DNA of 64,000 nucleotides, from NCBI GenBank assembly GCA_964016885.1, contig CAXHJY010000639.1, forward strand, positions 62,001 to 126,000, in the 5' to 3' direction. Every line of letters begins with the position of its first letter. Position 1 is the first letter of the stretch. Both the position numbers and the translations under genes were made by a program. The notes beneath the pieces were generated by a model. That model had not been told where the DNA came from, made no database searches, and saw only the letters and a list, made by a program, of their open reading frames with translations. Below, piece after piece: positions 22,301-62,963 of this stretch. This DNA is from Eledone cirrhosa. Its lineage: Eukaryota.

Positions 22301-22597
22301 GAAGCTTGCATGCTCCGCCGGATGTGTAATAGAAATATACGTGAACGGCAAAGCATAAACGAACTAAGGGAGAAATTAGGAATAAGAGGGATCAGATGTT
22401 GTTTACTCGAGAGAAGACTACGTTGGTATGGTCACGTGATGCGCATGAAAGACGACAGCATCCAGCCGTAGAAAACCCGCCAGACAGTCCTATGCGAGCA
22501 AGACGACCACTCTTGCCTCAAGTGGGAAAACTCCCGTCCAAACCCATGCAAGCGTGGAATATGGACGTTAAACGATGATGATGATGATGATGATGAT
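19343..22597 (+). mobile_element. Near full-length RTE-clade LINE (AP endonuclease + reverse transcriptase + PHD-type finger), frameshifted
   Basis: APE ORF 19661-20512 (CIQETRW, SAYAPQ, IAGDLNGHVG, QVDYIL). RT ORF 20562-21923 (QFGF, FVDLEKAFD, GVHQGSVLSP, YADDL). The C-terminal part is broken by frameshifts and the element ends in a (GAT)n tail. The 5' boundary is approximate. Confidence 0.95.
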
Positions 22598-22897: not shown

Positions 22898-23273
22898 CAT
22901 CATCATTTTACGTCCGCTTTTCCCTGCTTGCAAGGGTAGGACGGGAACTGGCTTGATTTCTACAGCTGGATGCCCTTCCTAACACCAACCTCATTTACAG
23001 TGAGTGCTGGGTGCTTTTTTTTTCCGTGGCGCCTACACGTTCACTTTACAGTATGGGCTGGGTGCTTTTTTGCCGTGGCACCTCCACGACCACTTTACAG
23101 TGGAATGATAGGGACTCCAGTTCCTATCATCTCATTTCTACAGCTGAGTAAACTGGAGCAATGTGAAATAAAGTGTCTTGCTCAAGGAAACAACACATCA
23201 CCTGGTCTGAGAATTGAACTTACAACCTTTCGATCGCAAGGCCAATGCTCTAACCACTCAGCCATGTGCTTCA
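22898..23273 (-). mobile_element. tRNA-derived SINE (family 2) with RTE-type 3' tail
   Basis: tRNA-like head on the - strand at ~23200-23272, RTE-shared tail ending in (GAT)n, and flanking direct repeat TGGTCTGATAT (22887-22897 and 23276-23286). Confidence 0.88.
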
Positions 23274-23290
23274 ACTGGTCTGATATATAT

Positions 23291-23624
23291 GGAGGCACAT
23301 GGCTTAGTGGTTAGAGCATTGGCCTTGCAATCGAAAGGTTGTGAGTTCAATTCTCAGACCGGGTGATGTGTTGTTTCCTTGAGCAAGACACTTTATTTCA
23401 CATTGCTCCAGTTTACTCAACTGTAGAAATGAGATGATAGGACTGGGGTCCCTATCATTCCACTATAACGCGGTCGTGGAGGTGTCACGGAAAAAAAGCA
23501 CCCAGCACTCACTGTAAATGAGGTTGGTGTTAGTAAGGGCATCCAGCTATAGAAATCAAGCCAGAATAAGTTCCCGTCCCACCCATGCAAGCAGGGAAAA
23601 GCGGACGTAAAATGAAATGATGAT
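23291..23624 (+). mobile_element. tRNA-derived SINE (family 2) with RTE-type 3' tail
   Basis: A box TGGCTTAGTGG and B box GAGTTCAATTC. Nearly identical to the adjacent inverted copy. Tail CCATGCAAGCAGGGAAAAGCGGACGTAAAATGAAATGATG. Confidence 0.88.
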
Positions 23625-25544: not shown

Positions 25545-25661
25545 GGAATAAAAAGGCTTCACCATCCTCAAAATACAATACAATAGGTGTACATACACAC
25601 CGACAACATCAACAGCAACAAGTAAAGGATACTGCATTATGGAGAAGAGGAAGCCAAGATG
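25545..25661 (+). CDS. WIP candidate cassette exon A (39 codons, phase 1-1)
   Basis: Strong acceptor ttttttttttccatAG. Open frame (G)NKKASPSSKYNTIGVHTHRQHQQQQVKDTALWRRGSQD. Donor G|GTAGTT. Length 117 nt = 3n. Not in the ORF track because it is short. Confidence 0.65.
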
Positions 25662-27277
25662 GTAGTTGACAAGTACATTAGTCCCATGTAGTGCTTCTAT
25701 GTTTCCAGTTTTTGCCATATTTTTCATCATGTGATATTGACTGCCTGCTTTCACTCTTCTAATATTTGTTGCTGACTTATGCTTTTGTCTATTTAGTGTT
25801 GTCTACATTAATACTCTTAATCAAGATGATGTTGCACGAATAATGACATTAATAATATTAATTTCAATGGTGTTATGATAATAAACTAATAACATATATA
25901 TATATATTTTTTTTTATGTTAAGCATAACTTCAAATATTCCAAAAGTGAAAAGAAGTTGGTATCTTTGAATATTCCATTGGAATTTTTAGCAGAGTTATT
26001 TGAATTCAGTCTAGTTTCAACAGTCATGCTATATTTGTAATAGGGAGAGCAACATGGTAAAATCTGGGGGAATTGCCTTTTCAGATAACTAATAGATTCT
26101 GAAGGAGGATGAAAAAAATATTTGGTTGATGTATTTGGGTGATTTTGGTGATGGTGTGAAACAAAGAAATATACATTAAAGCTGGAGATTCACAAAAATT
26201 TAGAGATAGAACTAAATGGAAGAGACACAATTAATTGAATCAACACATATGGGAGAGTGTAGTCAATTTAATTGTTCCAGTACTAATTATTTTATTAAGA
26301 TCAGATCTTCAGCAATTTAGAGAGATAGTTACCTTTATCTCTATCAGTTCTGTTATCCCTGATAATGATGATAATAATGATAATTTTTTTTCACAAAACA
26401 TTAATCCCAAGATTTGATGAGGAAGGAAACAAGTGAGATGTGATATTTATAACTTTCCCAGGGGCATTAGTAATGTAAGTGAAATTAAATGATGCCAACT
26501 TAAAGTTGAAACTAGGTCATAGACTCAGTTTGTTGAGGACCTAGCATATAGCGCAACACCTAATAATTATAAACAGCTATCAATATCATAGGAAAATATT
26601 TATTGCTTAGAACTAAATAAATATACTGGGAAAAATACTTTATGAACACTTTAGTCAGATATTTTGGAATGTCATAGAAAAGTATATTGTTACTATATTT
26701 TTTATTGAGTAATCTAAATATAAGAATCATTATGACAGTTGTTTTTATTTTTTTTATTTTGCTGTTGGAAAAGATCAAAATAATTTTTTTTTGCATTTTT
26801 AGTCTAATTTAGTATATTGTATAACTTAATGCATTTTAATGCTAAATATCAACATGGTTATAATTTTCAAATGAAAACTTCCTCAATATTAACTTACTAA
26901 CAAGTCCACCACCAGGTTTGCTAATGGTGTTTATTTAATAAACAGTTAGTTTCTAAAGCATAGTAGACACCTGATTGGATTGAACAAAAATCAAGCAAAC
27001 TTATCTGAAATGACTGGTTGTCTTTTGTTTTCTTTAAGTCTTTTGGCTTCTATGTATTAATTTTAATTTAGAATAAGTGCGGCTTTTTTTTTTTTTTTTA
27101 AATTGATAGTTTTCTCCAAAATTACTGTATATACTTGAATATAAGCTACCCCCCCCTCTATTTTATGTCTGAAAAGTGAATAAAAATCCAAACACCGTTT
27201 ATAAGCAGAAGAGTCTAATCAATACATGTTTAGATGGTGTACTTTTGAAATTATTTATGAAATTTTAATAGTTTGAT

Positions 27278-28626
27278 GTTCTTAGCCCTCTCATGTTCAT
27301 CATAGTCCTGCAGGCAATAACGGAGGAGTTTAAGACCGGATGCCCATGGGAACTCCTGTATGCTGATGACCTCACACTTATAGCTGAATCTATGGTAGAA
27401 CTAGAGAAGAAATTCCAAACTTGGAAGCAGGGACTAGAAAGAAAGGGTCTCAAAGTCAACATGACAAAGACTAAGGTCCTTGTAAGTAGACGAGAAAACA
27501 GAACCCAGATCCCCTCAGGGAAATGGCCTTGTTCAGTATGTATGAAAGGTGTAGGTAGGAACTCCATTCTCTGCCCCAAATGCAAACAATGGGTACACAA
27601 GAGATGTAGCGGGATCTCAGGAAGCTTAATTAAGAATGTAGGCTTCACATGCAGCAGCTGTACTGGGACAGCAAGCAGCAAACAGCCACAGGAAACAAGT
27701 ACCACCAATCTCTGGGAGGGCTCTGTAGAGACAGTAGACAGCTTCTGCTACCTAGGTGACCGAATTAGCAGCGGAGGTGGGTGTTCAGAAAGTACAATAA
27801 CAAGGGTAAGAACGGGATGGAAGAAGTTCAGGGAACTACTACGACTGCTAGCTGCAAAAGGCTTCTCCCTCAAAATGAAAGGCAGACTGTATGATGCGTG
27901 TATCCGAACAGCAATGTTACATGGTAGTGAGATCTGGGCGCTGAAGGTGGAAGACTTACGTAGATTAGAGAGAAACGAAGCCTGCATGCTCCGATGGATG
28001 TGTAATAGTAATATACGCGAACGACAAAGCATAAATGAATTGAGAGAGAGACTGAGCATAAGAGGAATCAAATGCTGTGTGCAGGAGAGGCGGTTGCGTT
28101 GGTATGGACATGTGATGCGTATGAAGGATGACAGCTGCATAAAAAGGTGCAGAGCACTAGAAGTTGATGGAAACCGCGGAGTGGGGAGACCCAAGATGAC
28201 CTGGGATGAAGTGATAAAAGGCGACCTTACCCAATTACACCCCTCAAAGGCGATGACACACGACCGTGACCTCTAGCGTCACGCAGTAATACAGAGTACC
28301 CGACCTCCCATGGGTACAAGCTGAAGCATATAGACAATATGCCCCCACACCATCCCACTGCAAGGTGGTCGTGGAGATGCCACGGCAAAAAAGCACCAAG
28401 CCCACACTGTAAAGTGGATGTGTAGGCGCCACGAAAAAGCACCCAGCACTCACTGTAAATGAGGTTGGTGTTAGGAAGGGCATCCAGCTGTAGAAATCAA
28501 GCCAAATCAGTTCCTGTATGAGCAAGGCATGGTCAGCCGATCAGACACTGCTCACAACAGGACAACCCGTCTAACCCATGCTAGCGTGGAAGAACGGACG
28601 TAAAACGGTGATGATGATGATGATGT
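27278..28626 (+). mobile_element. 5'-truncated RTE LINE (RT C-terminal half, PHD-type finger, 3' UTR, (GAT)n tail)
   Basis: ORF 27293-28276 with YADDL, a C4HC3 finger and RRLRWYGHV.R. Second subfamily, diverged from the 19343 copy. Confidence 0.95.
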
Positions 28627-30674
28627 TTAAAGTGTCATTTAGAGTATAGGTTTTGTTTCACAACTCCATTACATAATGCATTTTTATCATTTGATTCATT
28701 TTATAAAGTTTAAAAAATATCTCTCAAATTTTTGTTTACTTCTGGCCACTCACAGTTGGGAGTATTTGAATGAAAGACACGAATAAGAGAACTTCCTACA
28801 GAGATTCATAGAGTAGAAGAGGAAGGTAGAGACATCAAGTGAGAGAAGACAAAAGCAAGAAGGGTGAGAGAGAACAGGAGCAATAAAATATAAGTCAGAA
28901 GTAAGATTTCAATCTTACATAAGATTGAAAGAAAAAGTATTATTAAGTCAGAAAAACAGTCAACATGTATGTATGTGTGTGTGCACAAGTACATGCATGT
29001 ATGTGTAGGGGATATTTATGTATTAAAAAGATTGAATTATAAAAATTTGTTGGAAATATTTTCAAGGGAATGCATAAATAACACTAATGATGTAGAAAAA
29101 CTGTTCATTGTAAAATAATCACTTCAGATAATTTAGCACCTTATTTATGTAAAATTTGAAGTTCATGAAAATCGACAAAATATTGACCTTGGATATAAAC
29201 TTGCCCCCCCCCCCTTTTTTTTTACTACCAATCTTTTTTTATTTTTGGGATCACATATTTCTTGACTTATATACGAGTATATACAGTACTTATAATTTCA
29301 TATATATATATATATTCAGTGTAATAATATATTATTCCAATCAATTTTCTCTCTGTGCAAACAATAAAATGCCTATTAGCATTTTAATTCAATTCAAGCT
29401 CTCTAACTGCTTTTTATTAGCTAATAGCTATTTCTCTTAATAATTTTGGTTACATTTCACTATAAACAAATCAAATTAAAAAGGGTTCAATAGAGATAGA
29501 CTTTCTAATTCAAGTTTCATTATAATTTCTTTTATTTTTTTTATTTTGCAAGATTCAAAGCAGCTTGATAAGACAAGTAAACTGTATGGAGTATGTCATC
29601 TGCTAATGAGCTTCTCTCTAAAACCATTTAAAAACTTGCATCTCTAGTTTGTTTGCCTTTATTGTCTAAACTAAGTAGCAACAGATGACAGAGATAATTA
29701 ATTATATTCTTTATTGTTCTAGCACTGATTTATCAACTTGTACTTCAAATGATCATGATCAATCACACACACACAAAATAGTTAACAAAAAAATTAGTTT
29801 CTCATTCGTCTCTCACTTTATTTCTTCTGTGTGCATTTGCTAGTCATCTTTGCAAGTATTGCTAAAAAAAAATTTTTGTTTGTTTTTTAAATATTAGTTT
29901 TTAAGTTGTATGTGTATGTTTGCACTTTTTATGCTCTCCCATCAAATTTGTTTCATTAAAATGCTGAATTGTAATGATTATATGAATATATATATATGCA
30001 TTCTTTCTGTTTTTATCAGTTTTAGCCAAATTAGCCACATTAGCCAAATATTCTTGAAAAGTACCTAAAATTAAAGTCAATTAACTACAACTTTTCACAA
30101 TGATCTGTCCACTAGTAAAGATACTAAAAACATTTGAATTAACAAACCCATTCTCTGCTAGGCCATTACAGGATGTTAAGAGTTAATGGAATTTTTTTTA
30201 TCACTCTTTTACAGCTGAAACTACTTTTATGAAATGTTTTAAATTAGTTTTGTAATAAAATACTTGTGTATATGTCTAATTTAGTAGATGACTGCTATGT
30301 GTGTGTGCACAAGTATGTGTGCATGTATGTACGCACAAATGTACATTTTGTAATTTTTAAAAAATTCATTGGCAATGCAACTTCTTAAATTACTTTGCCT
30401 CTCAGTTATTTTCTCCAGAAACATTTAAAATCTAATGAATATAATTTTTTTTCTCTCTCTCTTGTATTTTCTATATGCATGTTTAATTATTGACAGTTTA
30501 TTTTTTTAAATTATATTTCTTGTTTTGCTAGTTTTTCAACTGTCTGTATTGCCACTTAAACATCATGAGGTCATTGTGTAGTGGTTGTTATTTTCTCCAG
30601 ATTATTTTTAATATGATTATCCATTTTCATGTTAATATACATACACTTGGAAATTTTTATTTTTCACTTTGCAG

Positions 30675-31019
30675 ACTGCTCAGCTATATTAATTCAAAGA
30701 AAGAAAATCCTTGAGAAAAAACAAAAAAAAATGATTACAAATCATAAAGTAAACTCATTCAATAATAATGCTAAGACAAGTTATTCAATTACAGCTGCTA
30801 CCAAGAACACTAGTGTCCAAAATAATTTGCCTGTTTTTTCAAAAATCCTTCCAGCTACTATTTCTGAGAACAATGATATTAGTCAAGGACTTAGCCCCAA
30901 TAGCCTAACTAACATTGATTCTGTAAACAATAATGAATTTAACAAACCAATAGATTGGCACATAAAACGAGGCCTTAATGAAGCTAACATACGGTGGATT
31001 TCAAATCTGAAAAAAAAGG
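30675..31019 (+). CDS. WIP candidate cassette exon B (115 codons, phase 1-1)
   Basis: Acceptor ttttcactttgcAG. Open frame (D)CSAILIQRKKILEKK...DWHIKRGLNEANIRWISNLKKK. Donor G|GTATAT. Length 345 nt = 3n. Confidence 0.7.
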
Positions 31020-31640
31020 GTATATATGTTATTGTCGTTCGTACCTTAGTTAACCTCTGCTTTTTGCCTATTTAACGAGCCTCAAACATTTGACGTCAAT
31101 CTTGCACTATAATGGTTTAAACCTCTTCACCTGTTTTAAATTTTTATTTATTTCTTAATTTAGTTTTTCTGTTTCACTTCAGTTTTTCCCATTATAGTTA
31201 ATATGTTCCCTTGTGCAAGTTATAATTATGTTTAATAGATTTCGCCAGACCCAAGCGATAAGAGAAAATGTTCATTAATCATTGTGGTTTTCTTGATCTT
31301 CTATTTTATGAATATTAGGGAACTTTCCTTACCCACATTATATAAATAGCATAACCTGAATATCAAAATAGTAATAAGTTAATTTTCATGTGGTCACAAA
31401 AAAATTACATGGAACACATCATGTTACTCATGTAATTCAAATACCTGGGATTTTTCAGATTCCTACCATAATAAAAAAAATACAAGCCTATTCCAGAACT
31501 TATTAGATAGAAATATTGTTTTCTCAATCAATATTTGTCAGCTCAAATTATAAGCTCATTTAATGTATAATTGGGATTGTCCTTCAAGTGGACACATAGG
31601 CTTTGTGTGTGTTTCTGTGTGAGAGAGAGAGAGTGGCATA

Positions 31641-31742
31641 GATAATTGTTTCTACTTTTGGCACAAGGCCAGCAAACTAATCAGTGTATTACTGGTACTT
31701 TATTTTATCGACCCCGTAAGGATGAAAGGCAAAGTTAACCTT
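31641..31742 (-). mobile_element. 5'-truncated tRNA-derived SINE (family 1)
   Basis: Matches the 3' half of the 6224 copy (TAATTGTTTCTACTTTTGGCACAAGG...GGCAAAGTTAACC). Confidence 0.8.
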
Positions 31743-31949
31743 AATGTGCACAAGATAGTGCTTAGATATCCTTCATACATTTTGTGATCAAGTAGATATA
31801 TGATCCTGTTTAAGATCCTCTACACTCTGCCTACTAACATTAAAGTTATTGTAACACACATTTAGAAACTGCATTTTACCTCAGCACATTTCTAGACTAC
31901 CATTCTCTTGTTCATGTTTATTTTTTTTTTGTGTGTGTATGGTTATATA

Positions 31950-33400
31950 TCTATTATATTATCTATAATATTATAAAGCTGAGTATCGTGTGTATGTATG
32001 TATGTCTCCTACACACCTCTCTATAGTTTGTTAGCTTTACTCTCTCCGTCGCTCTTCCCTCTCTCTATAATAGATCATTCCCCTTCTCTATAATTTAACT
32101 GCTTCACTCTCTCTGTCGCTCTTCACTCTCAAATATTATAAAGTTGAGCGTCTTCTCCGTCGCTCTTCCTTCTCTATATAATAGATCATTATAAAGTGAA
32201 GCGTCGTCTTTCTCTCTCTCTCTCCCTCTTTCACTTTGTCTATAATTTAACTGCTTTACTCTCTGTCTCTCTTCACTCTCTATATGACAACACTCTTTTA
32301 CTTTCCGTTTTAATTGTATCTCTCTCTGTCTAACGGCCTATCTCTCTCTCTTTTCCCCTCTCTCTGTTTTTCTGTCGTCGCTCGCATAAGTAACACACAT
32401 ACACACACACACACTTTCTGTCGTCGCTCGCATAAGTAACACACCCACACACACACTTTCTGTCGTCGCTCGCATATGTAACACACATAATATATCAAAA
32501 CAAAACAGACACACATGCACATACACACATACACACATACACAAACACACATACACACACATATCTATACTTTATATGTATGTATGTATGTAAGATCATT
32601 CCCCCCTCTCTATAATTTAACTGCTTTACTCTCTCCGTCGCTCTTCACTCTCTATATGACAACACTGTTTTAGTTTCCGTATCTCCCTGGTGGACGAGGT
32701 TGAGAGGACTGAGGACAGATGCCTTTCTCTCCGGACAACAATTGATTCCATTCTTTAAGTATCACTTTAGAAGGAGAATCAGGGTGGAGAGAGAGGCACT
32801 GCACCCCAGTAAATTTACTGAAAGGTGGGTGAATGAAGCGAAAATGGCCCGAGTGATTGGACCTTCTCTGTTTATAAGCCTGTAGGTTGAGGAAGAGAGC
32901 AAAAGGAAGAAAGGAGCACTTGCACAACACGCTCCTTGAGTTGAGGGTTGTTCTATCGACGGGGTATTAAACAACCCATTTGTGGCGCCTCCCCCCTATT
33001 AGGGATTTCGATTGTTGAAATTGTTTGTTTTTATATTTTTTTACACGACTGTATGTAAAATCCCCGGCATGTCTTTGTATTGTCCCCTTTCTTGTTGCGC
33101 CCTTGTGGCTAATAAAGAAATCAATATATACACACATATACACACATAGAGAGAGAGAGAGAGAGAGAAAGATTAGGAAAACTACACACACACATCTACA
33201 GAGAGAGACAGAAAAACAGAGGGAGGAGAAAAGAGAGAGATAAGCCGTTAGACAGAGAGAGATACAATTAAAGTGTTAGTTATTCAGATAGAGAGAGAGA
33301 GTCGGAAGGACAATGGGACACAGGAGGGTGTGTGGTATCTTTGCAGTGGAGTGGTGAGGGCAGGTATACCTAGCCGGGCGCCAACCGGACGAGCCAGCTA

Positions 33401-33401
<1 letters not shown>
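31950..33401 (+). mobile_element. Non-autonomous Helitron with internal tandem/inverted repeats and nested LINE fragment
   Basis: 5' A|TC(TATTATA...TATAAAG). 3' CCGG-N7-CCGG hairpin followed by CTAG|T. Internal CT-rich repeated units. Confidence 0.8.
32680..33123 (+). mobile_element. 5'-truncated L1/Tx1-like LINE 3' end nested in the Helitron
   Basis: C-terminal peptide RGLRTDAFLSGQQLIPFFKYHFRRRIRVEREALHPSKFTERW resembles Tx1-clade ORF2 ends. Followed by a 3' UTR with AATAAA (33111) and a (TA)/(CA) run. Confidence 0.6.
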
Positions 33402-33447
<46 letters not shown>

Positions 33448-33539
33448 TGTGCGTTAATATAAGTATATGTATTTATGTATGTATACGTGTGTGTCTGTGT
33501 ATATATATATGTATGTGTGTGTATGAAGGTAGATAAGGT

Positions 33540-33805
33540 TGTCATCATCACCATCATTTTATGTCCGCTTTTCCCTGCTTGCAAGGGAGGGGGGCGACTG
33601 GAACCGATTCTGGCTTGATTTCTACAGCTGCATGCCCTTCCTAACACCAACCTCATTTACAGTGAGTGGTGGGTGCTATTTTCCGTGGCGCCTACACGTC
33701 CACTTTACAGTGTGGAATGATAGGGACCCCAGTCCCCATCATCTCATTTCTACAGCTGAGTAAACTGGAGCAATGTGAAATAAAGTGTCTTGCTCAAGGA
33801 AACAG
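33540..33805 (-). mobile_element. 5'-truncated SINE family 2
   Basis: Near-identical to 22898-23190. Confidence 0.85.
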
Positions 33806-33829
33806 ACACTTTTGTTTATGTATATTGGG

Positions 33830-34600
33830 AATGAATGCTTAAACAAGAAAACTGCTTACTAGAGAGTTTGAGTCAATGGCATCCTTTGAATTGTACAGCA
33901 TAAATATCCAAGCAGGGGAATATGGTATATAGGTCCAGAAGAGATCACGGAGTATATTAATATATATATATTTATATATATATATATATATAGTAATAAT
34001 AATAAATTTGAAGACTAAAATCCAAAGAGGGCTCGATAAGGATAAATATATATCAGATATATAAGAACCGTAGAGCAAATATTTATTAAAATAACAGATT
34101 AAAGTTTAAGCAAAGAATGGCTGTTTCACCCTTTCAGAAGATCCTGTTAAGGGTGAAAGCAGCGATTCTTTGCTTAAACTTTAATCTGTTATTTTAATAA
34201 ATATATATATGTATGTATGTATGTAAAAGGTAAACCGAAATAACAATCCGTACAGTATATGGAAGAGATATATTAGGTTAACGCTTGATATAGCAGAAAG
34301 AGGGTTTTGACGTTTCGGACGCTAGTCCTTCCTCAGAAGAAAGAATGTGAAATAAGATAGATTTAGGGGATGGGCAGGTTAGAATTGGAAAAAATGTCTT
34401 TAGATAGAAATTAGGAAAAGAGTGAGGACCCTGACGGCTGAGCTCCAGCCGTTTCAACAGCTAGATCTAGCTGTCGAAACGGCCGGAGCTCAGCCGTCAG
34501 GGTCCTCACTCTTTTCCTATTACCCACTCTACTACCCTAAGTATCGAGTACTCTGGTGCGTTATGGTCCACCTGGTTTCTTACCACACTTTCTTTGTTAT
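33830..34600. mobile_element. Cluster of Penelope-like element terminal fragments with two fold-back hairpins, embedded in (TA)n
   Basis: Inverted repeats at 34079-34204 and 34412-34519, a hammerhead core at 34308-34336(-), and (TA)n borders. The sequence at 34133-34200 is shared with 13858-13925. Confidence 0.6.
34304..34340 (-). ncRNA. Minimal hammerhead-ribozyme-like motif of Penelope-like element type
   Basis: The - strand reads CTGAGGA-A-GGAC-TAGC-GTCC-GAAAC-GTC-A. This gives the CUGANGA and GAAA core boxes, a perfect 4-bp stem II and a GUC site. Stem I is weak. Confidence 0.6.
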
Positions 34601-34789
34601 ATATATATATATATATATTCAAAATAAGGAAGTGGGGTACAGGACTGCTAGGTTGTGATGGTGGAGGTGGTTGGGGCATGCACAGTGGGGTTAAAGCAGT
34701 GATGCTGAGAATCATCATCATGTATGTATGCTTGCATGCATACATACATACATGTGTGTTATATATATATATATAAATATATATATATA

Positions 34790-35058
34790 TCATCATCATC
34801 ATCATCGTTTAACGTCCATTTTCCATGCTAGCATGGGTCTGGACGGGAATTGTCCCACTTGAGGCAAGATTGGTTGTCTTGCTCAGGACTGTCTGGCGGG
34901 TTTTCTACGTCTGGATGTCCTTCCTAACACCAACCACGTTTACAGTGTGGACTGGGAGGTTTTTACCGTGTTACCTACACGGCCACATTACAGCGTGGAC
35001 TGAGTGTTTTTTTGTTGTGACACCTACACGACCTCATTTATTTAGGACTGGATGTTGT

Positions 35059-35060
<2 letters not shown>
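34790..35060 (-). mobile_element. RTE 3' UTR/tail-only insertion
   Basis: Reverse complement of 24040-24427 with a single copy of the duplicated unit, flanked by (TA)n. Confidence 0.8.
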
Positions 35061-35131
<71 letters not shown>

Positions 35132-35490
35132 ATATGTATATATGTGGTATAATATAAATTGTCTTATTTTCTGTGTGTGTCAGGTAAATGAAGTCTGATT
35201 GAGATAATTATGTGATTGGTTTCATTATAAACTAGTACTATTTACTCATTTTAATGTCAAATCTCAACATATTCCTTTTAAATAGAATTTTCTGGAGGGA
35301 AATTTAATTTTTTAGAGAAATCATGAGTTTTTTTATTTTATTTTACTCATTTACTTTACTATATTCATTTTCTTTTAAAATCCATTAGTTTTAAATTTTT
35401 AAATATTTCATGTAATTAACATCCATTTAATTAACATCAACACCAGATTAGCTTAATTTCATAATGAATTTTATAATTTACCAATTTCAG

Positions 35491-36168
35491 TTCGTCGGCT
35501 ATCGACGCTTTCCTTCCCCGTGATGACATCTTCCAAGTCCAGCTTTGAAATATCACCAACTATGCAGTATTCTTCTCACACATCTTCTGTGCCTCAACAT
35601 TCTCCTAACCAATATGTAGCCCACTTAAAAACAACAAAGGCAGAAACATCACCATCTTGTTATACTTCAGCAGTGTCTCATCAACATAAGAGTTCTGTTA
35701 ATGAAGCTGAGGAGCCTCATCAAATGAAATCTGAAATGATCTCTACTCCATCTTACAGAATTATTCAAGAGTCCTCCTCAAATGATATAAATACTACTAG
35801 CTTTAGTTACTCTGATAACTATCTATCTCCCAACCAATATTCTAACCCATATACTTCTCAGAACATTGAGAATAATGTCAGTGTTACTTCAACATTGCCA
35901 GCACCACCATTGATTGAGCAGATCCAATCTAATTTGAAAAAGTTAAAAAAACACAGTTCCCCTAAAATGGCTAATACTAGGACTAGCTGTGGAAATTCAT
36001 CCAACCTGAAAATAATTCAAGGTTCTCCTTGCCATACATCATCAAAAGCTGCTAAAACACTTGAACAGCAGCTTCATTCTCTGCGCAAGATCTCAGTCAA
36101 CCATAAGACTACATCTTTTGAACCTTCAGCACCAGTCTCAGAATGGAAGCAGAAATTTAAAATAGATG
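35491..36168 (+). CDS. WIP candidate cassette exon C (226 codons, phase 1-1; Ser/Thr-rich, two WH2-like motifs)
   Basis: Acceptor atttaccaatttcAG. 678-nt stop-free frame in AT-rich DNA: (V)RRLSTLSFPV...APPLIEQIQSNLKKLKK...LEQQLHSLRKIS...PVSEWKQKFKID. Donor G|GTATAC. Confidence 0.8.
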
Positions 36169-36802
36169 GTATACAATGCACGGTTATTAGTTTAGAAATT
36201 TGTCATTGGCACTTTGCATAACATTAGCTCTTTACATAACATTTAATTATAGAATTACTTATTTCCTTAAATGTAAACCTACAGTACTACCTTACAGAAA
36301 ATTATATTCAATAAGAACTGGTTACCTTTTCATAATTGTGTATGTGTGTGCATGTCACAGATAGCATTTCACCAGTCACCATTCTATTATTTTAAAAACT
36401 GACTGGGAGAAATACCCAGGGTTGCTGGCTGCATGAAAAATTCATGCAGTTAAGCCTAGAACTTTTAATAAATAGAATTACTCCTGTAGTATGGAGTGAA
36501 AATGATTAGCTAAATAATTAATTCTGGCCAAGAAATGCAGGAGAGATAACTCCTGGATTTGAATTAATTAAAATCAATTAAAAACAGAACGTAGAGGGAG
36601 TGAGTCAAATCCTTGTCAGTATCATGACCACTCTGCATGTTTTTATCTTGCTTGAAAGCATTGTCTTTTCTAATGTAACAAACCCATGATGACATAGACA
36701 TATAGCAGTTTAGTGGATGACAACTGAAGAGAATGACTTGTGGGTGGGTACCTGGGATAATTGTTGCATGAAAAACAAATAGTTAAGTGGGTAGTAAATT
36801 AA

Positions 36803-37033
36803 CCCTTTAGCATTTACATTACTCTATATATACTATTGTATTTTCATGGTAAAGGCTTTATCTCACATAATTACCTCACATAATCTCTCCCATACTATCG
36901 AATCTATGCAATTTTGATATTATTTATTTTGGGAACAATATCTTAACATCAGTATGAGTGGCGGGTTACAGCCGGTTTGAACAGAAAGAGGTGAGAGAAT
37001 CTGGCCAGATACAGCCAGTTTAAATGCTAAAGG
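36803..37033 (+). mobile_element. piggyBac-type MITE
   Basis: TTAA target sites on both sides and TIRs CCCTTTAGCATTTA / TAAATGCTAAAGG. Homologous to the 47095 and 58869 copies. Confidence 0.88.
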
Positions 37034-37618
37034 TTAATGTAGTGAGGTAATTAATTTTAATTCTTTTTTTTTTCTGGACTATATTATGTTAACATCTACT
37101 TTTTCTATTACATTTGTGTTCAGAACCTACAGGTGTCAACTTAACCCTTTCATCTTTCTGGTTTTAATAGAATAATAAGCAGTCAAATACTATTGTTGAT
37201 TTAATCCTCTATACACCATTCCAAAATGTATTGCCTTAAGCTAGTCAGAAAGAAATCAATATTACTCTGACTTTTATTTTAATTAGTGTGTCGATACGAT
37301 TTTTTTTAATGATATACTGTAAATGAAACTTTGTAGACAAAGAATTTTCTTTATCTGACTGACTTCGTTTTGTGTTAGGTGCTAATTATATATAACCATA
37401 ATCCTGATTTGTTAATATAGTAGCAGTTTTAAGAACTTAATAACTTCAGATTTCCATAAAAATTGGTTATCACTTGTTTTTTTAATCAAAAACATTTATT
37501 TATAGATGAAGTGTATTGCAAACTTGTAGCATTGAAAATTAATGTTTTTTTTTTTTTTTTTTTAATATACTTTTCTATTCTGTTTTTAATTATAATTTGA
37601 ATAATTTGAAATTTTCAG

Positions 37619-38407
37619 CTCCCAATTTCAATAGATTTTCTGCTTTTCGGTTGAATATTCGCCAGCCTGGAACTCCTCGGCATAGATCTGCAGCTATGTC
37701 TCATTTTAGACCAGTCGCCTCAACAAATACTCAAATGAGTTCTTATAATGTTACTAAATCTTCAAATATCATTGCAACTAATTCTAATAATGTTTTAACT
37801 ATTGGTGCTAAATTTAACAACTTCAACCAACAAACATATCCAAAAAAGACTGAAAAAGAATGTGTTATCGTTGAAAAGCCTCAACAGCCCTACCAGAAAT
37901 ATAAAAGTTCAGTAACTGGAACTTATGAAACTGCATCAGTTATAGAACAACCCAAGAATATAGCATACAAAGTATCTAACCAGCCTTCACCAAAATCAAC
38001 TATGTCGCAATCAGTGTCTGAGAAAAAACCTGCAGAATTTCTAGAAATTACTCTTAAATCAACAAAATTTTCATCATTATTTTATGGTGCTAAGAAAGAT
38101 CCCAAAAAGGATTACTCACCATATGGAAATTACAAACGATCACCTTATGGAAATCCGTCTTCTTTACTTAAGACTAATAATAATTTAAACCCTTATGTAA
38201 GATCTGTTTCCTACCATGGGCCAATTTCTGATGCTTCCTACACATCTCCACAAAATTCAGGCAGCTATTTCCAACCATTCTTCCGGCCTTCGTTTATGTC
38301 CAATTCTGAGAAAGTATACTTTGAAAATAACTATCAAAAATCAGCTTCAGCGCCATCTCTAGTACAAAGCCGTATCCAATGGGCATTGAATGTGTCTTCA
38401 TCTGATG
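37619..38407 (+). CDS. WIP candidate cassette exon D (263 codons, phase 1-1; Ser/Asn/Tyr-rich)
   Basis: Acceptor aattttcAG after a long T tract. 789-nt stop-free frame: (A)PNFNRFSAF...KPAEFLEITLKST...KSASAPSLVQSRIQWALNVSSSD. Donor G|GTATTG. Confidence 0.8.
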
Positions 38408-41400
38408 GTATTGTTGCTGTTGTGTTCCTCTTATGCACATAGTTTCCTTCTGCTATACAGCCCATTTGTACCCACTGCTTTGTATACCATTCTATGGTTT
38501 AGTGACAAAACTTCAAACTGTGACACCAAGAGAGATTTTTTTTTTAATGAACAAAGCTGACTTTATATTTTTACTCATAAATTGTAATTTCTGATTAATT
38601 ACATCTATTATTGATATTAATAAGAGTAATGAAAGGCCAGCATTGATATAATACATGACAAAATATTTGTGGTGTTTAGCTAGGTCTTTTTATGGTCTGA
38701 GTGCAAGTCAGTCATCTATATTAGTACCCTTATAAATATGTGCCCTTATGATAATATTATGAATCATTATTGAAGCTAATAAGCAGTTCATTAAGTCGCA
38801 AGAACTTCAGAAAGTTGATATTAGATTTAAAAAGTAGGGAATTAAAAGTTTCAACAAAGTATCAATTTCTATAATCAATTATAGTGGGGTTAATCAAATA
38901 CTATTTTTAATGAGCTCATCTATTTTTGATTTGTTAAACCACTTGCCAGTTCCCCTTCTTCTGTGGTCACAAATTCACAGAGTAAATTAAAAGTTTATTG
39001 TGAGACTATAAAAAATCCTGTACTTATTTGAAAGCATAAAGTAATAATGATTTTAATTACTTAACATTGCTATAACTTAGTTGTAAACTGTCTATTGTCA
39101 GTGGTATAAATATATTGTATATTTATCAATAATTTGTTTTAACATCATTGCCTCTCTCCTTATGTTCTTTTAGCTGAATTCATTCTGTTGTAAGCATTCA
39201 GGTTAGGTCTACAATCCAAGGATAACTTCCTCCTTACTTTCCACCTGTCTTGGAGGCCCTGACGAAACTATTAAACAAATTTCAAAGTTCAGAAGTTACA
39301 TCTTATTAGTAGTTGTCATTTAAATCTTTCATTGGGGTTTATAAACATTAACACTACTACACTTCATTTCTCTCCGAGTTGTTCATCTGGTCAGCATGTG
39401 TGATTGTCACCATTAGTCAATGGATGACTGTTTCACCAAGATTGCACATCCACCATTCTGCTTCCCATGGTTTCACTTAGTGGCTTCCAATCCTTGGTTG
39501 CTAACCTCTTTATCAAGAGGTTGTTTTATTCAGCCATTGGGCAAAACCCTATATGGGATATTGATGGGTGATGTGATCAAATCAGACATGTCCAAGCATG
39601 CTTGACTATATAGTGAATAATTGCAGCAAAAGGTTTGTTTTCAATTCCCTTAAGTGTAGATAGTTAATGAAATAGAGATCACTTGACATTTTATTTGCTA
39701 ACAAATAGACTCATAATAAGTGTATTTGTATATGAAAGTAAAATGTGACTGATGTAATTTCAATAGATATGTTAGGAATTGCATGTTAAATAGATGATTT
39801 TGTGTATTAAACCAAAATATGTATAATTAGAATGACTTTCATATTGTATATTATTTGAAGCACAACATATGACACTTAGTTTATATGAGCATTGTTAACT
39901 TTATGGAAGAACTAAAGAGGATTTAAAAAAGAATTATGAAATCTAATTTCAATCATAAAGCTAAACTATTCATCTGGAGTATATTGGTACTGCACACATC
40001 AAAATATTGCTACTCTCTTTCAATAATATATTTTATCCCTGGAGATATTTTAACTGTGATGTTAATACTTTCTCATCCAGATTCCATAGTTCCATAGCAT
40101 ATTTAAAATGGCTAAGATTGTGAATCATAAGCAAGTTTGGTGTTTGTTTAAATATTATTTCTAACTAAGACACTATCAGTTGTGCAGGAGTGATTCTGTA
40201 TAACTGACAAACGTACAGTAGTAGACTTGAACCTATCTGTGTTGCCTGTTTACATATAGGTAAAATGAACTAAGAAGGGTTAAGTGTTTTTACAAGAATG
40301 TATTTAAATGTCATTGATAGGGTATGAACCATCGATTGCTTGCATCTATATTACTTTCTTATCTGCAACTCTGACTTCAATCAATTCAATCAATATACAA
40401 GAATATCTAGCTGTATTGAATTTGTGATCCAGTACTGATAATTTAACTGGTTAGTTCCAATCGACATGTCTAAGAACAAGTTTTCAATTGCTGAATACTT
40501 AAAAAAAAAACACAAGTTGAAAATAGTTTGTATTTAGTTACATTTTGGGTTCAAATTCAACCAGGGTCAACTTTACTTAACCTTTTAGTATTGATAAAAT
40601 AATAATAGACTAAATCTCATCTTGAGCCTATGTTGAAAACATATTTTAGGTTTTCTTTGGTGTGACATACTTATTCTTATTTACTCTTACCTTGGCTCAG
40701 TCACAGTTCAAGCTTTTAGTTGTGAAATTCATTGCATCTTTGTATTGTTTAACATGTTCCCTCTTCACATTAGTTAACAATTAGCACATTGTTTGCTGAT
40801 AGTTAGTGAGAAATAATTATGTAGAAACATAGCTGCTATAGTACTCAATATCAGAGGGTTTCAAAACTTTTTCAAGTTTCCTCATAAGAAACCATTCTCA
40901 GTCGTAGCACTCATACAGTATTAAAAAGTATCATTGAAAAAAAAAAGCAATACAAAATAATATGAATAAATTAAATCCATTGATCAATATGAAAGTTAAT
41001 ATTAATGCAAAGAGTATTAAAAGCTTACTAGAAATAATTGTGCATTGAGGAAAACCTGGTATTATTATTTCCCTTTTTCCAGCAAGTATGGGAGACAAAT
41101 CTGGACAATGTTTTGATTTTATTCTGAGCTCCTCGGCAAAGCATTGACTTCACCAGTACTTGCTAAGTAAATATTAACTGAAAAATATAGAATTATGTAG
41201 AAATTAAATAATTCATAGACATCATCTTCAGGGGAAGCTATTAGGTAAGTTAAATTAGTGAACAGGGAAATGACATTTACATGCTTTATTTATTTGTAAA
41301 TGTCAATAAAACTTAGTAGTAATGTGTAATTGAGACAATTTAATTACAGTTTCATCATTTCCACAACATTTCTCAAAACAATATCCAACTTTTTAAAGTT

Positions 41401-43002
41401 TAACTGCCATATATAGTTTTAGATGCTAAAGTTCGTAATTACTTCCCTGATTAGTAAAGACTCAATTTTATGAATTGATAAAATGTAACACACTATACTT
41501 CAATGAGATCTAACATCAACCTTCCATTTCCTTGCATTTTAGCTACCCACACCTGAAAAGCAGTACCATTCACTTTGGGAAGCATTCTTGTAGATGAATC
41601 AATAGAAATGCATTTGATATTCTTGTGCACTTTTAAAAACCTTTTATATAGTTCTTATTTCTGTTTTGTAATACTTTTATACTATAAATGATTTATTGAT
41701 TGCTAATAATATTGATATGTATTGCCTGCTTGTAATTTTCTGTGAACATAAGTATATTTGGAAAATATTATCTTTGCAAATAAGAACTGTTATGATTTTA
41801 AATTGCCTAATCGTTTTTTTTTATTTATTTATTTTTTAATCATTAATATTGTTATTTGCAAACCAAGCAGATCTTAAATTGAAAATCTTCTTTTATAACA
41901 AACCATGGGAAAGCGGGTGTAAAACGATGATGATGATTATGATGAATTATATATTTACTTATATAGTTATGACTAGTATACAAAGTTATGTCCCTTGTGA
42001 CAGATTTGTTTCCCTTGAAAGTATTTGTCAGCCTCATTATTGCGATTATAAATCATCATCATTATCTTAACGTTCATTTTTCCATGCTGGCATGAATTGG
42101 AAGTGGTCTGGTTATAAAATATTCAAATTTTACAATATGAGATACAGAAATGATTGATATACAGGGCCAAATCATCAAGTAATGCAAGCTGGGAAAATAT
42201 TACAGAGAGTAGTGAGCCAGACTGGACACATTATGGTGTCTAGATCAATGCTTCATGTATCTAAGTTCAAATACCACTGTAGCTTCGGTTTATTTTTCAT
42301 TGTCGAATGTACTCCTCCAACTAATAGTTATACCTAAAATGGAAATGATTAATGTGTGTATTATTATGGGTACTATTGTGTATTATAGTGGGCGTGGTGG
42401 TAATTTTTTTCTAGTGTATAACTGTGGTCCTCTTTTAATCTCTAAATGGAATCATTTCTTTTATGACTCTAATGTTGTTGGGTGAGACATGGATGTTACA
42501 AATTCCTATTTCTGCTTCTCTTTTAATTCAGAGCTTTCTTCTGTTATTAATTAACTTATTTATTTCTCATAGTCTATGGTTCTCTGTAGAAATAATGTGG
42601 TGAATCCTGTCTTTGAAATATCGGGGAGAGCTTTTGCAGAGCAGTAGGTATTGATATGAATGACTATATGTCATGTTTGATACTGGGTATAGAGAGAACA
42701 TAATTCTAAAGACCATAGTTTTCATAGAAGTAAGAGATTTTACCATATGTACAAATAAGAGATTTTCACACATGAACATTTTTCAGTAAAAATGTTGGGG
42801 ATGTTGAATTGTTTTTTATTTTTTTTTAAATAAGTACAATATTGTCTTTGATTTTAATATTTATATTACATAAATTGGTTATATATATATATGCTTTTTA
42901 TATGTTTACTACCATTTTTTTCTCATCTGGTATATGTGGTGGGTTCTGTAAATATACATATTTTTCTCTGTTAGTATTTCTTGATAATTTTTTTTATTTC
43001 AG

Positions 43003-43098
43003 CTAGTCAAATTACGGATAATAAAGAGGATTCAGTTCGATCTTTGGTCAAAGATCGTATCCATTCTTGGGGAGGAGGACATTATTATAAAGATGAGG
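43003..43098 (+). CDS. WIP candidate cassette exon E (32 codons, phase 1-1)
   Basis: Acceptor ttttttttatttcAG. Frame (A)SQITDNKEDSVRSLVKDRIHSWGGGHYYKDE. Donor G|GTATAT. Length 96 nt = 3n. Its motif is shared with the end of exon D. Confidence 0.75.
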
Positions 43099-45961
43099 GT
43101 ATATCCGACTTTATCTTCAAAAGCTTTGATGTGTTGGTAGCAGTCATCACAACAACTAGTTAGCAGCACCTGCATGTATATATGTTCAGTTAAATATGTC
43201 TGTCACTGAATATTGCAACAGTTTTACCCACTATTTGGTTCTACTTCCTTTTAAGTTAAACTATGTATATACTTACTTAGTAATGGTGTTTCCTGAAGAT
43301 GTCATATGCACTATAGTAATTAACAAAACTTTGATTCAGTATAAATATTCTAAAGAACTTCTATTTAAATAAAATACTTAAGAGAAGACTATCAATAAAT
43401 GCACTCGTTGAATGACCTGTAGTTGATTCTCCAATATGGAATGTTAGTGGAGATATCAGTTGCACAGGATCAAATATATATATGGCTTGCAAATCGTTAG
43501 CTAAGTTATAGGTATAAATGATTTAGAGGTTAATATTACAGTTGCTAATTATCCAAGTTAGATATAAATTGTTAAGCTTTTACTAACCTTATGTCATAAA
43601 CTCATGTTCCTATAAAAATATAGAAATATATAACTATTAAACTATTATTCACTGAGAACAAACTCTTTCATACAAGTAGGAACGGTTTTCTTCAAGCGAA
43701 AAACTCATATGTTTGTGATGAGTTTATATAACTGTGCTTAAATGACTGAATAGGAGAATAGGAATTTATAGAACATTCTCATGTGTTTATTTGAGTTAAT
43801 ATCATTTTAAATGTTTAAACAAACATTAAACCAATTAAACCATGTGGTATTAAATATATTTAAAGATTTTAATCTTTGATTTATGCAATATGTTTAAATA
43901 TTCATCTTAATATTCTTCACAATTCAAGCTAGTTGGCATCATAATCCATGCATGTTATCAAACTACTTTGGTTTGAAAATAGTACCTGCATCAATTATTC
44001 AATATATATGTAGTTTTGTTGGGGTTTTTTGCAGAGTTTTTCTTTAAAATATTTTCATTAACACATAAACATTATGATAAGGAATCACTGAAGCAATATA
44101 TTTCTATTTTATCTATAGTTTATGAAACCCCATGTATTAAGATAAGAACTTATCATTTAATCTTTAGCGAGCTTCAGGCATCTATGTCACCAATAGAGTA
44201 ATCTCCCCATAATACATAATGCAATGTCAAGGGAAAAAATTCATAAAAAAATTCAGTGGGCTAAAGGTTAAAAACACTAATGCTGAATTATAGAAGTCAG
44301 GAAATGAAAGCAAAAACATTATTTTTGTTCTATTTTTATACGTAATTCCTGTTTTGTTCCTTTTTTCTGTTGTCATAGGTTCTTGTGTACCCTCATTTGT
44401 TATCAATATATTTACTGGTTTTATTTATTGTTATCTGTTTTTATTTATTATTTTTGTCACAGTGATAATATTGAGCACTACGTAGTTGTGTATACACAAA
44501 AGCACACACACTCACATATATATATATGCATATATATTATATATATCATCATCATCGTTTAACGTCCATTTAAACGATGATGATGATATTTTTTTCTTTA
44601 TTTTGGTGTGATAAATTTACTTTTCTCTCCCTAATTTAGTAATTAATTTTATTTTATTTTCAGTAAATTGCATGTTTATTAAATATGAATTCTAATGTTT
44701 ATTCTTGCTGATTTTTATATCCCAAGAAAAAAATATAACATTTTCATTCAAATTAAAAATATATTTGTTGGTGGTGGTTGTGTGTGTGTGTGTGTGTGTG
44801 GTGGTGGGGGGGGGGTATTGAATATTTGGAAAGTGATTTTATAACTTTCTTTCAATTTTTCAGTGGTTTTGTTAATGCCTTTTGTAATACCATAGACATT
44901 GCAACATGTTTGTTCTTTTCTGTATAGCAACATCACATCATCATCATTACTTCATTTGATGAATTTTCATTACATACTTTGACTGTACAGCTCTGCATAC
45001 CATGCTTTGTTTTGTTTTTGTGCTTATGTTTTTCTATTGTATTGGAAGTACTCTATGTAATATGTATAGAGTGTTGGACCAGTGTTGTTTTCTCTAAACA
45101 TTCCATCATCATCATCATCATGATCCCATCATCATCATTTATTTGGAGCTGTGTGTGATTGTGTATATACTCTATAATTTGTCCACAATTTGTTTCTCTC
45201 AATGATCAATAACTGAGTCATTATGATTTCATAAATCATTTAGCAGGTATTGGTTACCTTTATGTAATCACTTGTATGTTAAACTATTGACTGTGTGCTA
45301 AACTGTTGACTTAGTTCTTTATTTTGGCAGATTAACTACATCACATATTGATATTTGTACTTAATGTGATTTACAACTATCTGAAGATTAATCAAGTGCT
45401 TTCACAATCTACTGCTTTCAGTAGATAGTTAGTAAATAAAAATTCAACCTATGAGAATCACATTCAACAATTTTCAGTTTGTTGTTACCAAGGAAACTGT
45501 AATGTGTTGGGAAAGGGTATTCTTATAACTGTTGTTGTTGTGTAACCCCAGGTCAGTTCAGATGAAACAGACATGATCAAAGGCATTCCACCTGTAATTA
45601 TGTCTATATTTATATCAGAGACTACATTATTCAATGTATCCTGATTTTTATTAAAGCCAGTGAGATACAATTTAAAGAAGATTTGGTTGCTGTTTCTAGT
45701 AGATTCAGCAACTATGCTTTCTTGTTAGATTATGTCCTATGTTTATAATATAGTTATTTTATTGAGTAAAAAAAAATTGGCAGGCTACAAACTGTAGAGG
45801 AAACTGTGTTGTAGATAAAAATTGTGCAGAAGCACATCATGATGATATGCATTACTGAGTTGGTTCTGGGTTCAGTTTTGATGCATGGCACCTTGAGCAA
45901 GTATGCTCTACTCTAACTTCAGATTGAATTTGGTAGATGAAAACTACCAAAGCCCGTCATT

Positions 45962-45994
<33 letters not shown>

Positions 45995-47094
45995 CTCTCT
46001 CTCTCTGTCTGTGTTTATGTCCCATAACTTAGCAGTTCAACAAAAAATAAATTGATAGAATAAGTATCAGACTTTAAAAAATAAGTACTATGATCATGAA
46101 GATGGTTCCCCAGTATTACCATTGTCTAATGATTGAAACTTTTATCATCATCATTTTACACTAGATGGATCTTCCCCTGCAAAATCTGTTTCCAATTATT
46201 GCATTTATTTTTTCATCCCCTCTGTATCTGTAAAAGAATAAAAGAATTTAATCAATCCCAGAATATTACTGGTATATATTTTATCCACTGCAGATAGTTA
46301 GAGTCAAGTTGACCTATATATGATTTTGAATCCAGTACATAGGATATATTGAAATACTCACAAGGCATTTCATCTGTTACACTGTTCTTTCTACCACTCC
46401 ACTGCACTATGTTTAACAAAGACAATGAAGATATCATTAGTTGTGTTAAAATATTCATGCTTCAGAAACAGGAAAGATATCAGTTTAATTTGAAAAACTA
46501 TTCAAGGTATTGATAATCAAATTAAAAAAATTTCTTTATATATCTTCATTTTACAACACAAGTAAATTACATAGCCACATATCAAATTACTGGTCATCTA
46601 ATCCTTGCTAGCAGGGAAAACATACATTAAATGATGATGTATGTATGAATTGTTTGATTATATATAATCAATGGATGGATGAATTCATTTGGTTTCAAGT
46701 AGGGTAGTTGTGATATTCATTCCTTTTTCAAATGAAGTGATATAGCTACTATTGGTAATTATAAATCCATTCAGTAATTCAACCTGCTATAAATAGTAAC
46801 CAAATCTTCATAAAATCACATCTTTCTGTATTAATATAGAAAAGACACATTAGATGATGATGTCCAAGTCACCTGAAAAAGAAGACAACATAATAATGGC
46901 TGGAACATATTTGATCATAGGTCTTCTCAGTCATGGCTGACCTGGGTCTGTACAACAAATTCACCTTTACCACACTAACATTACATACCATCTCTATATA
47001 ATAACCATTACAAAAGTACACAGATAACAAGCATTGTTAGCTGCCTATATACATTGTTTTGACCTGTTAGAAAAAGCAATCAAATATACTTTAA

Positions 47095-47302
47095 CCCTTT
47101 AGCATTTAAACCGGCTGTATTCGGCCAGAACTCTCTCACCTCTTTCTGTTCACACCAGCTGTAACCAGCCACCCATACTGATGTTAAGGTATTGTTCTCA
47201 AAATAAATAATATCAAAATCTCATAGATTCAATATTATGTGAGATAAAGCCATTACCATGAAAATACTATAGTAAATATAGAGTAATGTAAATGCCAAAG
47301 GG
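47095..47302 (-). mobile_element. piggyBac-type MITE (inverted orientation), nested in a family-3 repeat
   Basis: TTAA at 47091-47094 and 47303-47306. TIRs CCCTTTAGCATTTA / TAAATGCCAAAGGG. The flanks join into one family-3 copy (47060-47430). Confidence 0.9.
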
Positions 47303-48454
47303 TTAAATAACATCCTACCATCTTATAAAAGAAAGCACACAATAGATAATGTAGTACTAGATATACTTTGTTTGAATAAAAGATGGAATAGTCATGGCTG
47401 GATCAAGGCTGACCTGAGGCTCAACAACAGCAGCCAGATTGTAGATTCAATTTACTGTGTCTTCTCAATGCTTGCTTTAAAACACATTTTTATTTTGTCA
47501 AAGGCATGAACATCACATAATATTATTTACCTCACTAATTACAAATGTGACATGTACTGTATTATACAGGGGCTGCAACCTGATTTGGATTCTTAGTTGA
47601 AAGCATTTCAACTTTCACTGACAGTAAATAGTTATGATTGTTACAAAATTCTATGTTTCTCTTGTACTTAGTGAAAAAAACCCAATATCTGTTATCGAAA
47701 AATAAAAAAATTTAGTTGTAGAAACTGGAGGTTGATCAAAAATGAATTAATGTGGAAGTTATTCTAAAACTAATTAATAGTAGAATATTATGTTTAAACA
47801 TCAATATTATCAAGTCAATTTAAGAGCTATGTATTTGCTAGAAATAGCAGCTAAATCTCAACTCAAATCACATGCTAACAGCATCTTAAACAAGGTAGAA
47901 CACATTGGATAATGTAGTCCTATATACTGCTAAAAAGATGGGATGATCATGACTGGAGTGTCTTTGATTATAGGTCTACTGACTTAAGGCTAAACAACAA
48001 CACTTAAAATCAAGCCTGGAGCCTAATCAGGCTGGTGTTTATCCTGATTTCATTGATGTTAAACAACTGAGAGCGCAAGATTCAACGTGGGCAGGATGCC
48101 AGTCCATCACAGGTTTAACTCCCAGCTTCTGCTAATGATAATGTTGTTTATACACACATTTTATTATTCATTACTAGTGGTAAAATGTGTGTATAAAACC
48201 AACAAACTACCTGCATCAGTTGTTAGCTGTTGGGACACTGCATCCTTCAAAACTTCCATGCTTCCCAAAATTCACCAACACTAGACCTGATATTCCCCCT
48301 ACATACACACGCACGCATGTGTGTGTCTATCATGACTCATACACTGTTCACTTTCATGACATTTGTACATTATTCTATGTACTATACATGCACCTTTGAT
48401 GAGTTGTAGTGCATCTGAGCACTGTCCACAATCATTTTCATTATGTTATATTAT

Positions 48455-62180: not shown

Positions 62181-62235
62181 GTATATATATGTATGTATAT
62201 ATGTATGTATGTATATATGTATGTATATATATATG

Positions 62236-62273
<38 letters not shown>

Positions 62274-62731: not shown

Positions 62732-62762
<31 letters not shown>

Positions 62763-62907
62763 GTATATATATATATGTATATATATATATGTGTATATAT
62801 ATATATGTATATATATATATGTGTATATATATATATGTATATATATATATGTGTATATATATATATGTGTATATATATATATATGTTGTATATATATATA
62901 TATTGTG

Positions 62908-62941
<34 letters not shown>

Positions 62942-62963
62942 TGTATATATAAATATATATATG

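Follow-up and report, generated by a model that had tools for sequence, protein, structure and literature searches.

Five in-frame exons, likely optional, between the two WH2 exons of a WIP/verprolin-type gene in Eledone cirrhosa

The 64,000-nt window analysed here covers positions 62,001 to 126,000 of a 129,659-base contig (CAXHJY010000639.1) from the 3.0 Gb genome of Eledone cirrhosa, and carries on its forward strand the first part of what appears to be a gene of the WIP/verprolin type. Its first coding exon, E1, and a second exon, E2, encode the two WH2 regions expected of such a protein, and in the intron between them lie five segments, referred to here as cassettes c1 to c5, each of which is preceded by AG, followed by GT and free of stops in the phase-1 frame that would join it to E1 and E2 (Table 1). 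An original prediction, made from the sequence of the window, had proposed that these are frame-preserving cassette exons which diversify the actin-binding N-terminus of the protein.

The translation of E1 starts with polyproline followed by a long WH2 (Pfam PF02205, E = 2.9e-08, 33.5 bits against a cut-off of 23.1), which is the N-terminal arrangement of WIP/verprolin proteins, and the best named matches in a protein search with E1 include WAS/WASL-interacting proteins. When E1 was compared with longer proteins, 12 matches were obtained from 124 candidates, with no close relative among them. The donor of E1 at 17491 (G/GTGAGT, the slash marking the end of the exon) and the acceptor of E2 at 57903 are both phase 1. 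E2 carries the motif LFPGGIPKL in the place of LFA[QG]G[IVM]PKL, the second WH2-like motif in eight arthropod WIPs; E2 alone gave no Pfam WH2 match. With E1 joined straight to E2, the spacing from LKK to LF is 40 residues, against 36–46 in all eight arthropod WIP-like matches (a comparison that excludes two yeast-like matches with about 70 residues), the original prediction having taken it as established that a short Gly-rich linker joins the two WH2 regions in canonical WIPs. A flexible Gly-rich stretch also lies between the two WH2s of human WIP (PMC7407642). In common with the WIP family (WIPF1/WIP, WIPF2/WIRE, WIPF3/CR16, arthropod WIP-like proteins and yeast Vrp1), the locus encodes polyproline at the N-terminus, then a long WH2 and, after a Gly-rich linker, a shorter WH2-like motif, and the likeness extends to WH2 spacing when E1 joins E2 (PMC7407642); it differs in having five additional in-frame exons between the WH2s, and in a second motif that ends KLQNK and not LRST.

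The contig stops 3.7 kb beyond the window, in repeats, and the 3' portion of the gene falls past that end. These repeats (62100–64000 and L002:1–1970) comprise about 4 kb of TA-rich microsatellite and then a LINE fragment running to the contig end, and they sever the 3' part of the gene. Three genome searches for the WASP-binding exon with arthropod C-termini gave matches with E above 2 in every case. As the 3' part lies beyond the contig and this exon was not found, it is by its N-terminal domain that we would place the gene in the WIP family. Two other loci may be mentioned here: a proline-rich exon of another gene with a WIP-type WH2 at its C-terminus (L007:1489–1974, minus strand; G000:C15), and an intronless, divergent actin-like open reading frame (ORF) of 376 amino acids which is 76–79% identical to two conventional actins (L019:1495–2625, minus strand; G000:C3).

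Table 1. Exons, cassettes and conserved intron starts of the WIP/verprolin-type gene (positions are those of the window).
Feature	Position	Strand	Description
E1, first coding exon	~17285–17491	+	ATG 17302; polyproline and WH2-1; strong phase-1 donor
c1	25545–25661	+	117 nt, symmetric phase-1 candidate exon; strong acceptor, weak donor; Trp 7 residues from end
c2	30675–31019	+	345 nt, symmetric exon in phase 1; rich in Asn, Lys and Ser; Trp 8 residues from end; single copy
c3	35491–36168	+	678 nt, conserved exon; predicted disordered; Trp 8 residues from end; single copy
Conserved intron start after c3	36169–36230	+	out of frame in relative; P0013 tblastn frame change ~36191–36200; holds GCACG
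c4	37619–38407	+	789 nt, conserved exon; predicted disordered; Trp 9 residues from end; single copy
Conserved intron start after c4	38408–38500	+	out of frame in relative; P0026 tblastn match 38418–38501 in another frame
c5	43003–43098	+	96 nt, symmetric phase-1 candidate exon; SFM-like VKDRIHSWG; Trp 10 residues from end; single copy
E2	57903–58040	+	phase-1 exon; Gly-rich linker and degenerate second WH2-like motif LFPGGIPKL; single copy

The coordinates, lengths, AG and GT ends and open phase-1 frames of the five cassettes were all reproduced as first described, and the pyrimidine tract that had been claimed for each acceptor was not found in its classic form at c3 and c4. Cassettes c1–c4 are open in the phase-1 frame only; c5 is open in frame 0 as well, and a second acceptor, at 42975, leads into the c5 frame in phase 0. 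The best acceptor ahead of the frame is phase 1 in all five, a point in favour of their being exons of this gene, and the donors belong to a single weak G/GTA class with GTAT in four cases. The open frames of c3 and c4 go well beyond what chance would give, as had been argued for these 678- and 789-nt runs, and that of c2 is unlikely by chance: none of 20,000 base shuffles left c3 or c4 open, with P = 0.0001 for c2, 0.086 for c1 and 0.058 for c5, and in 200 Markov simulations of 29001–48000 a 678-nt stop-free run was never reached and a 345-nt run appeared in 41.5%. A fixed rule (T-rich, AG-free acceptor, G/GTA donor, symmetric, open and at least 75 nt) run over the 40-kb interval found precisely these five segments on the forward strand in phase 1, where simulation gave 0.42 on average, and two candidates, both at c5, in the other five strand and phase classes, although the rule was devised after the five segments were known and is partly circular. 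Under a stricter generic scan c1 and c2 only were retained, together with one extra candidate, a 123-nt symmetric phase-1 segment at 50661–50783 (forward strand) which fails the fixed rule.

The larger cassettes have relatives. A search of 1.84 billion protein representatives with c3 gave three matches, one of which is genuine (P0013, 72% identical, from a Logan contig; the ortholog set is P0013/P0016), and P0014 and P0015 were rejected as unrelated, repeat-driven matches. The c4 search retained three of 306 candidates, P0026 (70%), P0028 (47%, over half of the query) and P0027 (35%). In the ortholog alignments 147 of 205 residues are identical for c3 and 191 of 270 for c4, and the gaps (four and seven, respectively) are all of whole codons; a protein alignment can display no other kind, yet the ortholog match runs unbroken in one frame. 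When neutral substitution was simulated down to the observed identity, the frame stayed open in 1.5% of runs for c3 and 0.14% for c4, and at 40% identity none of 2000 runs kept it open; these figures do not count the whole-codon gaps. Identity in c4 is clustered in blocks ([IV]TLK[SQ]TKFS, SASAPSL and VQ[SC]RI[QK]W), and P0026 also retains residues encoded immediately 5' of the c4 acceptor, which again favours c4 being an exon of the kind proposed. Scans of metagenomes with the c4 and c3 alignments confirmed none of 47 and none of 73 candidates, and the Atlas gave no usable match for c4 or for c3 residues 125–225.

Every full-length relative reads through the weak G/GTAT donor at the identical place, as Gly-Ile, and beyond it the similarity persists in another frame for both c3 and c4. 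Judged from these alignments, c3 and c4 are real coding sequence, held under constraint, and their donors are conserved; the change of frame with continued similarity indicates that constraint on the protein stops at the predicted donor, and that the adjacent intron is itself conserved. This argues against either being a terminal exon, and the alternative that each simply ends by reading through its donor is disfavoured by the out-of-frame similarity.

All five cassettes share a further feature which was absent from the original prediction and is new here. A Trp lies 7–10 residues before the end of each, there being six Trp in 670 residues overall, and none of 20,000 shuffles matched this pattern, even with the choice of residue, the end of the exon and the place of a four-residue window within the outermost 25 all left free. 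Since all five terminal TGG codons are read in frame and the Trp is retained in the c3 and c4 relatives, it is likely to be a protein-level feature, and a purely nucleotide-level TGG signal is disfavoured on the same grounds. Through this sequence pattern c1, c2 and c5 are linked to the proven exons c3 and c4. The Trp may be an actin anchor, a calmodulin anchor or a relic of old exon duplication, and its shared position hints at a short motif not yet described or at a common splicing design. It also bears on the alternative that only c2–c4 are real and that c1 and/or c5 are chance AG–GT pairs, as their open-frame probabilities and the 0.42 such candidates expected per interval might suggest; we consider this rather improbable, given that both have the Trp at the shared position, T-rich acceptors and a GC content above that of their flanks, and that c5 fits the F-actin-binding pattern described below.

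As direct joining of E1 to E2 gives normal WIP spacing, the five inserts are likely to be optional. Symmetric phase and a conserved flanking intron are hallmarks of alternative, regulated cassette exons; symmetric phase and weak donors are found in 5/5 cassettes, and a conserved flanking intron in both of those with relatives. The combination of weak, conserved donors with a conserved flanking intron suggests that inclusion depends on splicing factors. RBFOX binds TGCATG and GCACG, and at least one of the two is found downstream of three of the five cassettes: within the 200 nt that follow the exon, c3 and c5 have TGCATG, for which the background is 0.11 per 200 nt, and c1 and c3 have GCACG, with a background of 0.01. 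We therefore regard as rather probable the reading in which the five are in-frame exons of the first coding intron, likely skipped ordinarily and included in some tissues, where they would insert up to 675 residues, predicted to be disordered and with likely actin-binding motifs, between the two WH2 sites. Three sequencing runs from one sample (X1–X3) behave as DNA, with continuous intron coverage and no splice joints among the matches listed, and over c1, c2, c4 and c5 they match the assembly, the few differences in unique sequence being intronic, in a comparison of low power in which c3 is poorly covered.

Two other readings of the same exons were weighed. Some or all of them might be constitutive, with a long WIP linker permanent in the lineage, and the deep conservation of c4 would suit this; it is nevertheless very unlikely, as the five weak donors stand against strong ones at E1 and E2, the conserved flanking intron and symmetric phase are those of alternative exons, and direct joining already yields canonical spacing. 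Alternatively, the exons could be part of a separate nested transcript, or of forms that begin elsewhere or stop early (e.g. starting at a c4 Met or ending after c5), and not of full-length WIP. A Met at c4 residue 26 is kept in all four lineages, the relatives' matches are at the level of the exon, and a truncated mini-WIP, the sole WIP isoform that we found described, exists in mammals (PMC3397550). Against this, an in-frame Met is lacking in both c1 and c5, the c4 codons before the residue-26 Met are conserved in frame in P0026, the read-through tails vary in frame and length across species, the fixed rule (which is blind to first and last exons) found no other symmetric exon, and the cassette phases match E1 and E2 at both ends, and we find this reading highly doubtful.

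The encoded inserts are rich in Ser, Asn and Lys, and AlphaFold2 models from shallow alignments have a mean pLDDT of 47 for c3 and 42 for c4, with helices predicted only at c3 residues 140–153 and 190–203 and at the c4 Trp motif. The helix at c3 140–153 is WH2-like (LIEQIQSNLKKLKK), ends in LKK and is kept in P0013 save for one Lys; it is not called as a WH2 by Pfam. Residues 240–245 of c4 (~38338–38355) read KSASAP, which we take to be a 14-3-3-type phospho-site pattern; P0027 and P0028 retain it, and in P0026 its Lys is replaced by Met. The F-actin-binding motif SFM has the form VxxLxxxFE, of which P1 and P8 are essential, and examples include SORBS2 VKSRILQYE and, with Trp at P8, CALD1 and LSP1 (PMC13364712). 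The c5 sequence VKDRIHSWG resembles the SORBS2 motif. Both it and c4 [IV]TLK[SQ]TKFS have an aliphatic residue at P1 and an aromatic one at P8, the two essential positions, in a context predicted to be disordered, and differ in that P4 and P9 are non-canonical, with the Trp motifs of c1, c2 and c4 off SFM spacing. These sites are putative; a loose form of the pattern fits c5 and a c4 block kept in 4/4 lineages, and fits other places too. PMC13364712 reports no motif-positive mollusc orthologues of validated SFM proteins, and the term 'WIPF' is absent from its supplementary file. On these models the short helices of the inserts resemble WH2 and SFM actin-binding motifs. A similar mix of motifs in another architecture is seen in two filarial nematode proteins (P0001 and P0002), in which four WH2 motifs precede a long tail that contains SFM-like matches.

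A mechanism consistent with optional inclusion would have the cassettes skipped by default because of their weak donors, and turned on by tissue splicing factors acting through the RBFOX-type motifs 3' of three of the five. The long forms would gain, on a flexible spacer, one WH2-like helix (c3) and filament-binding, SFM-like helices (c4 and c5), and so might both lengthen the spacer between the WH2 sites and anchor the WIP–WASP complex on actin filaments, with muscle or nerve as the most plausible setting. The two WH2 sites of WIP are assumed to lie on either side of a short flexible linker, and a linker that can be extended by up to 675 residues, with extra actin-binding motifs, would be a natural test of WH2 spacing and filament anchors in WASP–Arp2/3 actin assembly. 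Conserved coding exons of this kind are likely to be missed by gene models built without the right tissue.

Several observations weigh against optional WIP exons of this kind. All of the c3 and c4 orthologs found are unspliced read-through, and the placement of c3 and c4 within WIP is seen in this genome, the relatives matching at the level of the exon. No longer protein containing c4 was found among 1272 candidates, a weak null because the E1 search likewise found no close relative. Frameshifts in orthologous regions, which the original prediction had named as evidence against the exons, affect two of the seven members of the P0027 cluster: P0030 and P0032 are the two parts of a single copy whose frame is broken at an A-run, either by assembly error or as a null allele. 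Indels within c3 and c4 in the other relatives keep the frame. At the splice sites, the acceptors of c3 and c4 are atypical (A/T-rich TTTCAG, below zero on generic weights) and all five donors are weak, none having G at +5, and c1 and c5 are short enough to be open by chance on frame alone. Among the motifs, no cassette has a Pfam match above cut-off or a PDB sequence match, the SFM-like match at the end of c3 has no Phe at P8 in P0013, and the spacing of the c4 Trp motif falls one residue below that of an SFM. Finally, removal of a putative actin-binding motif from Drosophila Zasp52 did not reproduce the loss of the exon that carries it (PMC13521563), and by this precedent the motifs here may not carry the function.

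How the cassettes might be combined was also considered. All 32 skip/include combinations are stop-free, giving 109–784 amino acids through E2, and the 675 extra residues and 32 combinations first proposed hold to the extent that 32 is what the frame permits. The mutually exclusive use raised as an alternative found no support. This would have the five as interchangeable modules used singly, each putting a Trp-anchored motif at a fixed distance before E2, and it draws on the Trp 7–10 residues before the donor in all five, the shared weak donor class, a weak similarity between the c4 and c5 ends (E 0.085) and the VKD..W common to c1 and c5. We think it quite unlikely. The introns between successive cassettes (5013, 4471, 1450 and 4595 nt) offer no steric block, and double inclusion carries no frame penalty by which nonsense-mediated decay could enforce exclusion. 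Pairing between flanks (29–41) falls inside the control range (31–137) with no common docking site, and docking/selector pairing is rejected at the sensitivity of this ungapped test; the 25 longest inverted repeats all lie away from the exon flanks and have the appearance of dispersed elements. The exons are not duplicates of similar length but differ eightfold (96–789 nt), with no overall homology and a best inter-exon E of 0.065–0.085. As nothing was found enforcing one-at-a-time use, the combinatorial system of the original prediction is what the frame would allow, with 32 forms at most, and a small number of fixed combinations is more likely. It is unlikely that the shared donor class and the Trp-anchored motif ahead of WH2-2 mark a co-regulated kit of swappable modules; were this true, splicing would convert WIP, an adaptor that binds monomers, into a set of isoforms which are tethered to filaments and in which the distance between actin-binding sites can be tuned.

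The same intron contains LINE-like endonuclease/reverse-transcriptase ORFs at 19583–22329 and 27272–28276 (presumably LINE), which lie in the same orientation as the gene and are split over several frames. A transposon origin for the cassettes was rejected, c2–c5 being single copy and the LINE ORFs lying elsewhere. Upstream of c1, a 151-nt inverted repeat (23122–23442; 96% complementary, arms 19 nt apart) would form a long pre-mRNA hairpin.

Mutually exclusive exon arrays of the Dscam1 and 14-3-3zeta type use docking/selector pairing, and are like this locus in having a row of same-phase exons in a single long intron; here, in contrast, the exons are not duplicated look-alikes and no docking pairing was found. 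Exon 4a of Big tau reportedly adds a long disordered insert by alternative splicing, in a different protein family, in vertebrates and with known expression. The alternative exons of NCoR2 likewise bring in motif-bearing stretches, again in a different family, in vertebrates and with known expression (PMC4554918). Closest in kind is exon 15e of Drosophila Zasp52, an optional, large, disordered and tissue-specific exon with a putative actin-binding motif in an actin scaffold; it differs in belonging to an unrelated protein and in being one exon with proven expression and a phenotype, whereas here there are five, known from sequence, with a shared terminal Trp (PMC13521563). No WIP insert between the WH2s was found among the papers listed in searches of the open-access literature; the original prediction had not recognised such isoform diversification from known WIP genes. 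The general principle is already known, which limits the surprise: optional disordered exons in cytoskeletal scaffolds are an established kind of splicing, and what is new for WIP is an instance and not a system.

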